From Eledone cirrhosa (taxonomy: Eukaryota): DNA of 64,000 nucleotides. The stretch is from NCBI GenBank assembly GCA_964016885.1, contig OZ024746.1:3534001-3598000 (forward strand), read 5' to 3'. A program made the translations under genes and the position numbers. This document shows positions 3,669 through 50,602 of this stretch, piece by piece (position 1 is the stretch's first letter; the number at the start of each line of letters is the position of its first letter). The notes beneath the pieces are model-generated. The model saw only the letters and a program-made list of their open reading frames with translations. It was not told the DNA's origin and searched no databases.

Positions 3669-3729
3669 TATTTTATTATATATATTTCAAGGGTACCAAC
3701 ATTTTGGTACGCTCTCATCAGATAAAATA
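3669..3729 (-). ncRNA. Minimal type I hammerhead ribozyme, family A (left arm)
   Basis: Exact reverse complement of the 3776-3836 motif. Confidence 0.7.
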
Positions 3730-3775
3730 CAAAAGTTGGTTTACAAATAGTGACATATCCAGACTAGAACTTTTG

Positions 3776-3836
3776 TATTTTATCTGATGAGAGCGTACCA
3801 AAATGTTGGTACCCTTGAAATATATATAATAAAATA
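3776..3836 (+). ncRNA. Minimal type I hammerhead ribozyme, family A (right arm)
   Basis: TATTTTAT-CTGATGA-[GAGCGTACCAA aatg TTGGTACCCTT]-GAAA-TATATA-TA/ATAAAATA: 8-bp stem I, stem II with one mismatch, palindromic stem III; predicted cut after 3828. Confidence 0.7.
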
Positions 3837-4053
3837 AATACGGTTTTATAAAGATAGCTTCCATTTATATATATATATATACGTATATATATGTGTGTAT
3901 GCGTGAGGGGGGGGGGGAAGAAGAGAGAAAGAGAGGGGTATGAGAAAGACTGTGAAATATATTCTTTTAGGTGTTTCTACATATTTTGAATTTCTGATGT
4001 TTCTGTTTCCGCAGAACAGAGAAGGAATTGTAAAGTTGTGACATAGAAGCCGC

Positions 4054-4369
4054 TACTCTCTCCAGCTGCAACCTGGTGCAGTCTGCGACTAAACCCAGGT
4101 TCTGCTGCACGTCCAGCTGAGGAGGCCAAACTCTCCAAATACCGGTCACTCTCCGACAGGTTTGCGGTTGTACCCTTGGCAGTGGAGTCTTCTGATGTCC
4201 TCGGTCCTAGGGCTACCTCCTACTCACCACCATAGGCGCTGAGTTGGCCACCCGCAGGTGTGAGTCTCGCGAGCTGGAATGGCTTTTCCAGCACATCTCC
4301 CTTCCCGTCCTCCGGGGGAACGCCTTCTCCATCCTGTCCGCCGGGGCTGTGGGGAGGCCACCAAAATGA
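4054..4369 (+). mobile_element. 3' fragment of a CRE-like non-LTR retrotransposon (REL endonuclease C-terminus), frameshifted
   Basis: Translates as AEEAKLSKYRSLSDRFAVVPLAVESSDVLGPRA...WLFQHISLPVLRGNAFSIL; a short near-identical piece lies at ~9764-9811. Confidence 0.7.
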
Positions 4370-4429
4370 TTGACCGACTTGTTATTTTATTAGTCAACTG
4401 TTGCTGTCGTTAGATAATTAACCCACTGA

Positions 4430-46161: not shown

Positions 46162-48564
46162 ATAGGAAAACATGAGATAAACAAGGAATTTTTGACAACA
46201 CTATCATAGAAGGAGATATTCATAACGATACGACACGCCCCACCCTCACAAATACTTTCATACCAAATGAAGAAAACGTCAAACGAAATGACAGTTTCAT
46301 ATTTGCCTGTAAACAACAGGGACGCTTTGAATATGAATTGGCCGAGCTGCTTAGTCAGATTTTGTAATGAAGAAACACATTTTTGCCGGAACAATTAGGA
46401 GCAGCTCTCTGCGACTTATAGGACAATATTTCATCAATAAGATACAGAACTGTGTGACTGTTTCTAAAACCATGTTTATGTAGGTTAACTCTCGGTATAT
46501 CTGGGCTGCAGTAGTTAGGTCGAGGAAATACGAGGTTCACAGTGAAAGACACTGTCTTTTAGCTTGTTATCTTTATGGAAGAGCACAAGCAGGTGTGTGT
46601 GTGTATGTGTGTGTGTGTGTGTGAACCTCTTTGTAAATTGTTGACATAGACAACAATTTACAAAGAGGTTGGTACTTGTTAGAACTATCTTTTGGATTTC
46701 ATAGAGACTAGCGTTACTATTTGCTATGATGATGATGGTATGTATTATTAAACGTACGTGTGAAATCCAGTTAAATAGTGTTGCACGCTCAAAGTCCTGG
46801 CAGTTGTAAATAATTGTTTCTACTTTTGGCACAAGGCCAGCAATTATCCCAGTGTATTACTGGTACTTTATTTTATCGACCCCCGTAAGGATGAAAAGCA
46901 AAGTTAAACTCGGCGGGATTTGAACTCAGAATGGCAAGGGCCGTAACTCTATGCGTCAAAGCATGGCGTCCGACCCTCTATCAATACTGCCAATCCACCG
47001 CCCTTGTAAATGATACCCAAATGAAACCAGGTGAAAGTAACAGATTCCCCAAACAAGGCATGTATGTTAATTTATTGCAATGGCATTTCTGCATTTCAGC
47101 TGCATAAATTATTCGAATGTGAGAACCATGCTAAATTCATAAATGCGAGTATTTGCTTAGGATTGAAAATATTAACAACAAAAATTAAATTATGTTCTAG
47201 TGTCACAAATATCAGTCCTAATTTTCTGTGAATTGTCCTAAATATAGTTTTCTAGTTTCACAAATAGCTCTAAATTTCAAACCTTCCATATTTGGATGAT
47301 TTGAGGAATAATGGAAAATTTTCATGTAACTATGAATTCTAAGTTAAGCAAAAAGCCAGTAATTTATGGGGAGAGGGAAGCAGATTATAGCAACCCTTGT
47401 TCTTGTTACTTTAATTTATCGACCTCGGAAGAATGTAAGGCAAAGATGACCTCGGTGAGATTTGAACTCATAAGTAAAGTGACGGAACTGAATAGCGCAA
47501 GTCATTCTGTCCGACGCTCTAGCGATTCTGCCAATCCCGAAATTGCACGAAATAATGGTTAATAAAGGCTATCAATTTTGGGGGAAGGGAAAGTCGATTA
47601 AATCGACCCAGTGCGTGACTGGTACTTTATTTTATCGACCCCATAAGCATGAAAGGCAAAGTTAACCACGACGGGATTTGAACTCAGAAATTGCACGAAT
47701 TAATAATATGTAATATTCGACCAAATTACTGTCGATATAATGAACTTGAAGGGAAAAAAATCATATAATAAAACAGTTTTGAAACAATGAATGTTGCATT
47801 TATTATGTTATGAATACTGGATTGTTATAAATGTTAAATTCTTTAGATAATTAAAAAAAAAATCAAAAGAATTTCTGAAATGTCACATATAGAACATTTA
47901 ACTCCAAAATATGACAGCAAAGGTATGATTCACACTTAACAATTGGTTTCTATGTACAGTGCGACACTCGAGCGACAACTGTCTAACCTTTTATGATCTA
48001 CACGTACCAATGATTAATAAGCGAGCCGTATTGGGTTCACAGGATGGGAAAACGAGGTTTTATGACGTTTATGCTCCTACCAAAACTATTAGGAATGGGT
48101 GACCACATGGTTCTGTGTTCGATCCATCCTACTGTGTGACAACCTGAGGCAAGAAGTGTTTTCTACTAAAGCTTCGAGTTGACTAAATACATTAAGAGTG
48201 GAATGTTGTAGCGAGTATTTAAAGACCAGTTTGAAGATGAGTAACGTCAACTTTTCAAGAATGGAGGACATTGCTACAAACCATTCACTTTAGCATTCTC
48301 CCTGTGGGAAGGAATTTGAAGACATGGCGGAGAAATGCTCTCAACTCTACCAGGAGAAGCGAGAAAGGAAGCCTGCATGGAGATTATTACCTAGTATTTC
48401 TAACCAAACATTCCGATTTTCTACTTGCGGCTGAAGCTGCACATCAAAGGACCCTCAGTTGAAAGAAAAGATGGCCATCATCGAATCGATAGACAACCAC
48501 GAGCCAAGTATACATATCAATTAATAAATAAATACATATATAATAAATAAAGTTATATTATATA

Positions 48565-48790
48565 CAGTGTAAACCATAAGTAATCGGAAGTCAATGTATT
48601 TTTATTACAAGGTTCACAGATAAGTTTTTGAACATCCGTTTATTTGTTATGGTTATATATTTCTTTAAACTACTTTTGTTTGATGTATTTATAATTTCGT
48701 AATGTATGACCAGAATTCTAGTAAATTAGTAAATATTATATCATTTGAAATATAAATGTTGGACTGCGCGCTTACATATGACTCACCCTA
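48565..48790. mobile_element. Degenerate Tc1/mariner-type MITE
   Basis: TA flanks; imperfect TIRs CAGTGTAAACCATAAGTAATCG / CGCTTACATATGACTCACCCTA. Confidence 0.45.
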
Positions 48791-50380
48791 TAGACATACA
48801 CACATATATATATATATATATATATATATAAGCAAAAGGGTTATTTAATTTGTTGGTAATTCAACAAATATATATGTTTATAACTGATTCGAAGCACTCG
48901 ACAGATTTTCTGGAGTATAATATCAATGATATTAAATAAATGGAAACTATATTTATAAAACCATAAATATGGTTTTATAAATATAGTTTCCATTTATTTA
49001 ATATCATATATATATATATGGGAAAATGTTCAAGACCTCGACGGCAGAGCTCAAGCCGTTTCGACGGCTATTTCTGTCCATAGAGAAAAATCACAAACCT
49101 TCCATCTCAACTCTACTTTTGAAAATCAGAAGAACTGCGAAACCGGTAAAGGAACCAAATAAATATATATATTTTTTATAAAAAAAGACTCCAGTTGCAT
49201 TTTCGATTTCATTTTTTTCCTTATGCTTTCACTCGTGTAGGACACCGGGTTTTTTTTTCATTTTGTAAAAAAACCTCACTTTCTAATATATATATATATA
49301 TATATATATATATATATATATATATATATATATATATATATATATTAGGTTATGCAAGAAATGCTTAGGATTATCCTGAATGCAGTAATGGTTAATTACT
49401 ACACTAGATAGAGTCGACGTACGGTGAGGGGTTACTCAACGAGTTATGGAAGAATAGTTAAAGAAGCTCAGTTTCTGATCCTTCTGTATTCCGGAGTGTA
49501 GATAAAGAATGAATAATAACAGGTAGACACCATAAAAAGGTAATTTATTCCGAGTGCTTACAAATGTTTCAACAGTAGTTATACAGCCTAGACATGTTAT
49601 GTGCAAATTGGTGATTATTTGATTGCAGAAACTCAATTTTATAACTACTGTTGAAACATTTGGAAGCACTCGGAATAAATTGCCTTTTTATGATGTCTAC
49701 CTGTTATTATTCATTATATATTTATATATAAGAGAGTATTGAAGTTTGCTTGAAGCATTGTGGAATAATAAGGTAAATTTCTTTAAGTCGTTTGGAAGCC
49801 TCGACAATGCAGATGGGTAAATCTCCGGGTAACAAGATTCGGTGGTGGAGAGAGAGAAGTAAGTGGGTATACGTTGAGAAGCGTGGCGTGTATAAGACTG
49901 TAACGTGTAGAGGAATGAAGGAAGGAGCGTAAAGGATAAAAATAAAAATAACAACACGAGAAAGAGTTACATTGGGAGAGATTTAATTGTCCCTATATAT
50001 TTCGGATTCACATCCATCAACTGGAGATTTTTTCCCGGGGGGAGGTTGTCCGTCGGAAAGGTGCGAAACATGTCCTCCGTTGTTCGTTGTTTTGTTCATG
50101 AAATATATATATATATATATTTTTCATGAAATTGTAGGAATCTCAAACATGGAAGTAGCTGTAAAACAGCCAGATGTTATGAATAAGGAAGGAGGTCGGG
50201 TTAAATATAACCTCTTATGAACGGAAGGACGGTCAGAGTAGAAGAGAGAGAGAGATAGTGTAAATCATATAATGAGAGATAGGAGAGGTATATAAGTATA
50301 TATATGCCTCTGTGTGTGTGTGTAAGTATATATATAATATAAAACGAAGAATCAGTGATGCATCTGGACTCAGTTTATTG

Positions 50381-50470
50381 TGTGTTACAATTGTTTCGCC
50401 GGCAGGTAGCTCGAGACATGATCACTGTATGGTTCTGTCTGATTCTAGATCTGCAGCTTCTTCGGACACA
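50381..50470 (-). ncRNA. Hammerhead-like motif, family E (left arm of fold-back 50332-50651)
   Basis: Minus strand: TGTGT-CCGAAGA-[AGCTGCAGAT...ACCTGCCGGC]-GAAA-CAATTG-TA/ACACA. Confidence 0.58.
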
Positions 50471-50512
50471 GGCAATACTTTTGGAACAAATTTTCTCACC
50501 GAAATTATTGCC

Positions 50513-50602
50513 TGTGTCCGAAGAACCTGCAGATCTAGAATCAGACAGATCCATACAGTGATCATGTCTCGACCTATCTGCCGGCGAAACAATTGTAACA
50601 CA
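50513..50602 (+). ncRNA. Hammerhead-like motif, family E (right arm), U4C core variant
   Basis: TGTGT-CCGAAGA-[ACCTGCAGAT...ATCTGCCGGC]-GAAA-CAATTG-TA/ACACA; palindromic stem III; predicted cut after 50597. Confidence 0.62.

Follow-up and report, generated by a model that had tools for sequence, protein, structure and literature searches.

A 64,000-nucleotide stretch of the genome of the octopus Eledone cirrhosa (assembly GCA_964016885.1, contig OZ024746.1, positions 3,534,001 to 3,598,000 of the forward strand), hereafter the window, carries type I hammerhead ribozyme motifs in and around an adhesion G-protein-coupled receptor (GPCR) gene. An earlier note had listed ten such motifs and proposed an origin in Penelope-like elements (PLEs). 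All ten are present at the coordinates and on the strands it gave, each with CYGANGA, GAAA and UH intact, and one more, related to family C and with its core at 39553 on the minus strand, had been overlooked. The motifs, the insertions that hold them and the host gene are as follows (nt, nucleotides; ORF, open reading frame).

3533..3870: family A (subfamily A1) insertion in (TA)n, a head-to-head inverted pair with arms at 3640-3865; tail of ~98 nt at 3533-3639, on the minus arm only
3669..3729, minus: hammerhead, family A1, N17 at 3677
3776..3836, plus: hammerhead, family A1, N17 at 3828
12583..12769: family B insertion; plus arm 12637-12769 with tail, inverted minus arm 12583-12636
12636..12688, plus: hammerhead, family B, N17 at 12681
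13603..13873: family A (subfamily A2) insertion; minus arm 13603-13776, tail-only inverted piece 13780-13873
13637..13702, minus: hammerhead, family A2, N17 at 13645; sense in the host pre-mRNA
15345..15744, plus: family D, 5′-truncated copy of an ORF-less tandem unit of ~840 nt
15482..15591, plus: hammerhead, family D, with an 83-nt stem II domain, N17 at 15587
15766..15814, minus: hammerhead, B-related subfamily, within a solo copy at 15749-15868, N17 at 15771
38994..39293: family C inverted pair; arms 38994-39115 (minus) and 39117-39293 (plus), tail of ~62 nt on the plus arm, then (CA)n
39026..39086, minus: hammerhead, family C, N17 at 39033
39140..39200, plus: hammerhead, family C, N17 at 39193
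39406-39651: family F insertion, carrying a partial inverted arm
39498..39559, minus: the eleventh hammerhead, family F, C-related, N17 at 39504
50327..50724: family E inverted pair; arms 50327-50501 (minus) and 50499-50651 (plus), tail of ~71 nt on the plus arm, then (AC)n
50381..50470, minus: hammerhead, family E, N17 at 50386
50513..50602, plus: hammerhead, family E, N17 at 50597
16363..40684, minus: host gene, a cadherin-EGF adhesion GPCR with four recognised coding exons (40684-40232, 34471-34181, 32277-30775 and 16512-16363), continuing beyond the left window edge

The window motifs are real type I hammerhead sequences, for which cutting of the RNA is predicted. A type I descriptor gives 12 matches in the window, as against 0.89 ± 0.86 (maximum 3) in 200 dinucleotide-shuffled versions of it; the 12 comprise the ten listed motifs, the eleventh and a weak match at 42959. 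With stem I set to at least 5 and a short stem III, 8 matches remain, compared with 0.145 in the shuffles. The conserved core (C3, U/C4, G5, A6, N7, G8, A9, G12, A13, A14, A15.1–U16.1 and H17) is complete in 10 of the 10, and its columns are 0.91–1.0 conserved among copies. Positions 3828, 12681, 15587, 39193 and 50597, named earlier as places to look for RNA ends, are the N17 of the five plus-strand motifs. The stems covary as well: among 21 A-related hammerheads from the window and other loci, 93.4% of cells are paired, against 76.6% in shuffled and 31–52% in slid controls, and two-sided (compensatory) changes occur at 17 of 21 pairs. Because the pattern used to choose this alignment holds the core and part of stem III constant, its value lies in the stem signal alone. 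None of the 88 Rfam matches in the window at E ≤ 1 is to a hammerhead family; the top matches are microRNA models placed on the palindromes, all below the gathering score. Separately, a minus-strand sequence at 16170-16190 has a core, a short G-C-closed stem II and GAAA, without stem III or a UH site, and reads as an incomplete minimal hammerhead-like motif.

The label ‘minimal’, under which the motifs had been described, does not fit them: they retain a helix III of 2–4 bp and so are not of the helix-III-less minimal type. The palindromic stem III noted earlier is borne out, though it is not complete in every motif. Taken together with its loop, it reads as a perfect palindrome in 6 of the 10, and the B and C copies are 0.67–0.89 paired. 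A stem III self-duplex is predicted for all ten (−2.2 to −12.8 kcal/mol), and constrained hammerhead folds, at −4.0 to −34.4 kcal/mol, lie 0.1–4.5 above the minimum free energy. A stem II pair directly after A9 is found in only 3 motifs, all of family A; in B, C, D and E, stem II opens with a mismatch (U-U, C-A or A-C).

Walks upstream from copies of B, C, E and A2, for which 20 longer stretches were fetched, lead from the hammerheads into frames for a reverse transcriptase (RT) with a GIY-YIG endonuclease (EN). Such frames lie in line with B at five loci (L306, L307, L310, L322 and L323): in L306 a B arm at 1123-1255 is followed by an ORF reaching 3426, and in L322 and L323 the EN lies 2.9–3.0 kb upstream of B. 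Three loci give the same for C (L313, L314 and L316, the last with a C arm followed by the ORF), and L318 does so for E, in the order E tail, ORF, E arm, with an inverted arm that carries a tail. Loci L311 and L312 run from RT/EN into A2. The stretches from EN to hammerhead, 1.4–3 kb long, are collinear between independent copies. One further locus, L166, is a tandem element with a unit of 4,162 nt and a hammerhead of the same topology at each end. The architecture common to L306, L316, L318, L311/L312 and L166 is a single ORF, RT with a C-terminal GIY-YIG, between pseudo-long terminal repeats (pseudo-LTRs). The Penelope-like origin is borne out by this check for A, B, C and E, which are the pseudo-LTR ends of RT and GIY-YIG elements. 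The accompanying claim that the families are ORF-less survives for D alone, the other four of the five being truncated ends of ORF-bearing elements.

The encoded protein carries the motifs DKT, CxCX5C, YxDD and YIG/YVG. DKT stands in place of DKG in L306, L316, L318 and L166, and the region is absent from the truncated L311/L312. The CxCX5C linker is present in 5 of 6 ORFs and was not found in L316; by inspection, the GIY-YIG core is without C-x2-C, the CCHH motif being absent. Pfam finds nothing in the RT ORFs and gives a weak GIY-YIG match (E 0.005), below its cut-off. At E ≤ 1e-30 the protein has 1403 relatives, mostly unnamed, and an endonuclease fragment taken from one flank has 53,460 first-look candidates in the genome. 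The window itself holds no PLE protein. The L166 element (G000:C12, 38420500-38426500) belongs to a Hydra-type family absent from the window, and has a 649-codon open frame and an asparagine-rich linker. An EN fragment beside the E copy L052 was considered as the ORF of that copy and rejected, as it is antisense and comes from another family.

The anatomy of the short copies, hereafter stubs, comes from family searches that each gave 40 scored places out of 520–3,691 first-look candidates, which are not copy numbers. The 3′ end of a stub is fixed at one of two points, according to whether a tail of 60–100 nt (~68–73 nt in B, 62 in C, 71 in E and ~98 in A) is present, and the 5′ end varies. A TA or CA run lies within 30 nt of the 3′ end in 28–29 of 30 loci per family, a raw figure in a microsatellite-rich genome. 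An inverted arm is attached upstream in 20 of 30 B loci, 13 of 30 C loci and 14 of 30 E loci, and in none of 30 D loci. The inverted arms mostly end before the tail, which is one-sided, and the position of the junction between arms varies from locus to locus. Within the window pairs the arms differ by 0–6 substitutions; those of the A1 insertion are 97% identical over 98 nt. The minus arm of the window B insertion begins at the catalytic core, without the 5′ strand of stem I, and this insertion is 98% identical to the pseudo-LTR of the ORF-bearing copy L306. Family B is young, with copies 98–99% identical, and has a long reading frame.

Inverted pairs are predicted to form hairpins that are 80–96% paired, at −90 to −266 kcal/mol. 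The idea that close pairs serve as dimers in cis fails on this geometry: with the partners on opposite strands, a pair is predicted to form a single long hairpin. They are unable to form dimers because one transcript has one ribozyme and its antisense.

Several shorter sequences resemble these stubs. At 48830-49008 in the window, a family A tail is joined to two very short inverted arms, with the hammerhead lost; this is an insertion like the A stubs, truncated further. Other short palindromes in TA repeats, without a hammerhead core, lie at 13155-13242, 16771-16906 and 49499-49724, and one has a one-sided extension common to 13202-13295 and 49719-49810; these are likely stubs of other PLE families. 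At L062:1728-2268, a 68-nt piece of family E, holding the catalytic core without GAAA or UH, forms an 8-copy tandem. A-to-I editing of the template was also considered and rejected. Rare variants in B, C, D and E show no sense-strand A>G excess, with A>G and T>C per 1000 of 1.2 and 4.2 in B, 4.2 and 4.3 in C, 8.4 and 6.7 in D, and 4.2 and 11.8 in E.

We conclude, with a probability of about 0.88, that the motifs are type I hammerheads in the pseudo-LTR ends of PLEs and that the window copies are short insertion stubs. These probably arose as the RT/GIY-YIG protein nicked TA-rich DNA and reverse-transcribed just a short portion of its RNA, in many cases twice and in opposite orientations. The tail would reflect two internal RT start sites, by analogy with an Anolis element, and the inverted partner would arise from a second short complementary DNA or a template switch. 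In the full element, the hammerhead would dimerise by way of its palindromic stem III and in that form process tandem read-through RNA, perhaps with assistance from the protein. The stubs would be passive, and paired ones in host transcripts would be masked by their own antisense arm.

Some points weigh against this conclusion. None of the ORF-bearing copies inspected is fully intact, all having stops or frameshifts (longest open frames 632 and 649 codons). For A1, the solo B-related copy and F, the tie to ORFs runs solely through 74–88% similarity to linked subfamilies, and the autonomous partners of A2, B, C and E would be Hydra-clade PLEs by an assignment from motifs. The structure used for the covarying pairs was drawn from one member. 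The G10.1–C11.1 pair is mostly absent, being present directly in 5 of 32 matches from a genome sample and after a bulge in 7 of 32. For family D, no PLE partner or helper was found, and the test for an ORF next to it used a Hydra-type protein only. Cleavage in these families is predicted, and its activity could be low or nil because most motifs are without the G10.1–C11.1 pair of the published consensus.

Family D is where the strongest alternative has its footing. All five families might be self-standing non-autonomous elements of the retrozyme type that spread through self-cleaved circular RNAs. D is ORF-less, forms direct tandems and has no inverted arms; its cores lie 839 nt apart in L045 and 796–844 nt apart in four other loci, and the longest sense reading frame in its unit has 86 codons. 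In a search for the unit start, a previous unit lies upstream in 17 of 30 loci and a Hydra-type ORF in none, and, in a separate set of 30 D copies, the five longest are preceded by the tail of the previous unit, not by an ORF. A true hammerhead array also exists nearby: ~50–90 kb to the right of the window, L404:850-2720 and L402 hold minus-strand tandem arrays, of 7 and 3 observed copies, in which every 310-nt unit bears a type I hammerhead, likely a classical non-LTR retrozyme array. Against such an origin, D occurs in partial dimers only (90 loci inspected), its 5′ truncation is evenly spread, and a further 3′ end, 37 nt before the first, occurs in L333, L350 and L372 and resembles the classic PLE tail, all features that are PLE-like and not array-like. 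The A2, B, C and E copies run into RT/EN ORFs, and their stubs keep one uncut hammerhead and neither start nor end at N17. We consider the retrozyme origin unlikely for the set as a whole; D is best read as a non-autonomous PLE derivative, which would be mobilised in trans by a PLE protein.

The setting of the motifs in one gene invites a second alternative, in which they are kept as regulators of the host pre-mRNA through intronic cleavage. The host protein combines cadherin, a long EGF array, GAIN and seven-transmembrane parts, and its gene continues into L386–L388; over its long EGF exon it shares 73% identity with an adhesion GPCR of Octopus vulgaris (37% for the next match), and a Lingula protein is similar in architecture. 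Members of A, B, D, C and F are intronic, and the E pair lies upstream of the first recognised exon. Five complete motifs, all on the minus strand (3669, 13637, 15766, 39026 and 39498), are sense in introns, and stem I of the motif at 13637 is predicted with a probability of 0.67–0.78 in a context of ±250 nt. That probability falls to 0.0 for each of the other minus-strand motifs tested (five of six), a dimer partner would be needed and none is near, and the copies are 91–98% identical to interspersed family members.

The density of motifs also equals the genome background. Using a slightly stricter descriptor on 30 evenly placed 10-kb stretches (300 kb) of the 3.0-Gb assembly, we find 32 matches, 24 of them in the 20 stretches on the seven largest contigs and 8 in the 10 on smaller contigs; the 64-kb window has 10, and 200 kb of neighbouring DNA has 23, ten of those in two tandem arrays. 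Shuffles give ~0.8 per 300 kb, and reversed and complemented sequence gives 0. The claim of many ribozyme-bearing families at high density thus stands. The suggestion of a cluster in and around one gene does not, as the window differs little from the genome sample in motif density and is not a hotspot, and the motifs show no particular connection with the gene. A role in regulating the host gene is accordingly very unlikely. The sample extrapolates to an estimated 3.2 × 10^5 motifs in the genome (bootstrap 1.6–5.1 × 10^5), or about one per 10 kb. The fetched loci taken together (1.3 Mb) hold 25 or more additional hammerhead families, unrelated in their stems and with a palindromic stem III, and among 357 matches in these loci 212 open stem II with a mismatch; in the genome sample, stem III is at least 85% palindromic in 21 of 32.

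The weakest alternative, that the palindromes are DNA transposons akin to miniature inverted-repeat transposable elements (MITEs) and the hammerhead pattern a by-product, draws on their short (110–320 bp), near-perfect inverted repeats in TA repeats and on thousands of candidates, and is largely refuted: a fixed-length MITE is excluded because the inter-arm junction varies by locus, centres vary among copies, the tail is on one arm only, no inverted arm is present in 16 of 30 C, 16 of 30 E and 10 of 30 B loci, the stems covary and the arms continue into retrotransposon ORFs.

Returning to the PLE stubs, the 5′ ends of the main arm, mapped per locus, pile up at particular points. In B, 21 of 29 mapped ends fall at −1 to +2 from the stem I edge; in A2, 20 of 30 fall at −76 to −74; in C, 10 of 30 at −38 to −32; and in E, 8 of 30 at −36 to −29 with 5 more at −24/−23. 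The D ends, treated alike, spread evenly from −72 to −576 with no pile-up. The B and A2 queries began near the pile-up points, which loses shorter copies and penalises longer ones little; of 20 B arms that turned up incidentally at other loci (one being the window copy), 8 start at 0/+1 and 1 starts upstream. A TATA-like box lies exactly 30 nt upstream of the B boundary, and the A2 and E boundaries have no TATA match. The boundaries of B, A2 and E begin with A after CC, an initiator-like context. A non-genomic G, expected when a cap is copied, is found ahead of 11 of the 14 B arms that start at position 0 and of 4 of the 5 E arms that start at −30. The B query favoured G, the opposite arm explains six of the cases and a fold-back of stem I predicts G too; as a possible trace of cap copying the extra G is suggestive only. 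Two other causes of the pile-up were weighed. Stalling at stem I as a general cause was rejected, as it fits B only, with A2, C and E piling up 30–76 nt upstream. The B boundary may be a 3′ splice site, as is reportedly the case in a Drosophila element, but B copies share no upstream exon.

The pile-up in B, in A and partly in C and E may mark the transcription start of the element. Going further, the stubs would be run-off copies of the capped 5′ end of the element’s uncleaved RNA, made by RT from the tail sites to the transcription start, and the start in B would fall on the opening base of hammerhead stem I, with the TATA box 30 nt before it; we hold this reading tentatively, at somewhat less than even odds. 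TATA and initiator-like motifs are known in the pseudo-LTRs of rotifer elements (PMC3846280), and a Drosophila element has an internal TATA-less promoter (PMC2377424). If true, the run-off reading would explain some 300,000 octopus hammerheads, above the published counts compared below, and would make the stub boundaries a genome-encoded map of start sites and of the use of uncut template. If the pile-up is the start site, the internal initiation seen in vitro would be linked to the bulk of genomic copies.

Other repeats occur in the same DNA. A ~190-nt interspersed repeat, likely a short interspersed element (SINE), is abundant (window 9820-10003 and ~30 other places), and homogeneous minisatellites of 34, 22 and 27 nt lie at 60371-61998, 2-1027 and 4431-5284. 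Fragments at 6965-7381 (minus) and 2348-2629 (plus), with no Pfam match, look like a zinc knuckle and restriction-like endonuclease; we take them to resemble the C-terminal part of R4/Dong long interspersed elements.

Among known systems, the closest is the Hydra clade of PLEs (Craig et al. 2021, 10.1101/2021.04.23.441226), whose hosts include Mollusca. Similar to the elements described here, it has an ORF for RT with a C-terminal GIY-YIG, DKT and CxCX5C without C-x2-C, a hammerhead in the pseudo-LTR, (TA)n targets, partial tandems, an inverted 5′-truncated copy and a one-sided tail. It differs in length, being generally below 3 kb, compared with 4.16 kb in L166 and 1.4–3 kb from EN to hammerhead alone here, a tendency and not a strict boundary. 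Its tails are 30–40 nt, as opposed to 60–100 nt here, and a small number of families is published, in contrast to the huge amplification here (53,460 first-look candidates for one EN).

The minimal hammerheads of metazoan PLEs (Cervera and De la Pena 2014, PMC4209133) share the type I topology, a short helix I, the unpaired base after A9, the palindromic 15.2–16.2 with loop 3 and the presence of numerous unrelated families in one genome; isolated motifs left by truncated PLEs and opposite-strand pairs 100–700 bp apart are already published there, as is the weak cutting of dimers. Their consensus is without helix III, whereas the 2–4-bp helix III found here is like the published Drosophila, rotifer and shrimp variants, and their G10.1–C11.1 is here mostly G-U, A-U or a mismatch. 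The ~3 × 10^5 motifs estimated here stand against 2,000–9,000 in that paper (~2,000 in Schistosoma, 4,000 in coelacanth and 9,000 in Xenopus), a rough comparison, as the descriptors differ. Other published counts are >6,000 in a coral, ~5,000 in a mussel and up to 120,000 in axolotl (PMC7229834), and 235 Rfam hammerhead matches in giant squid (PMC6962438).

Family D shares with the metazoan non-LTR retrozymes (Cervera and De la Pena 2020, PMC7229834; Li et al. 2026, 10.64898/2026.07.22.740005) its ORF-less tandem units with one type I hammerhead each and PLE-like ends, and is alike in the same ORF-less tandem hammerhead features to non-autonomous Chlamys elements such as MRC1. Retrozyme monomers are 150–450 nt and range from dimers to long multimers, whereas D is ~840 nt and occurs as partial dimers with random 5′ truncation. 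Retrozymes have a canonical hammerhead and are expressed as circular RNA; D has a non-canonical one, with the 83-nt stem II domain, and the 37-nt alternative 3′ end.

The PAc Poseidon element of Anolis (Frangieh et al. 2024, PMC11167929) is from a different clade and shares two fixed 3′ ends, AT-rich targets and retention of the uncut hammerhead. In vitro, its protein nicks AT-rich DNA and initiates RT at a pair of internal sites, which set the extent of the tail; uncut RNA is used, and the hammerhead cuts only with the protein present. Its ORF starts inside the hammerhead, as opposed to downstream of the tail here (L306, L316 and L318).

A search by title and the start of the abstract, with subscription papers and supplements outside its reach, found no paper on octopus hammerheads, and in the available text of two cephalopod repeat papers (PMC13282606 and PMC8967140) neither ‘hammerhead’ nor ‘ribozyme’ occurs in a term search. 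If the density holds, annotation of octopus repeats and double-stranded RNA must handle ~10^5 fold-back stubs that resemble MITEs or microRNA hairpins. Dozens of diverged hammerhead families, with natural changes at 10.1–11.1 and longer dimer stems and missed by Rfam here, are a resource, and the young family B, with its long reading frame, suits study of the role of the hammerhead in PLEs. Set against the published systems, the pseudo-LTR hammerheads, opposite-strand pairs, truncated solo copies and the Hydra clade itself are known already, and what is less ordinary here is the abundance, the 60–100-nt tails, one ORF-less derivative (D) and the 5′ pile-ups.

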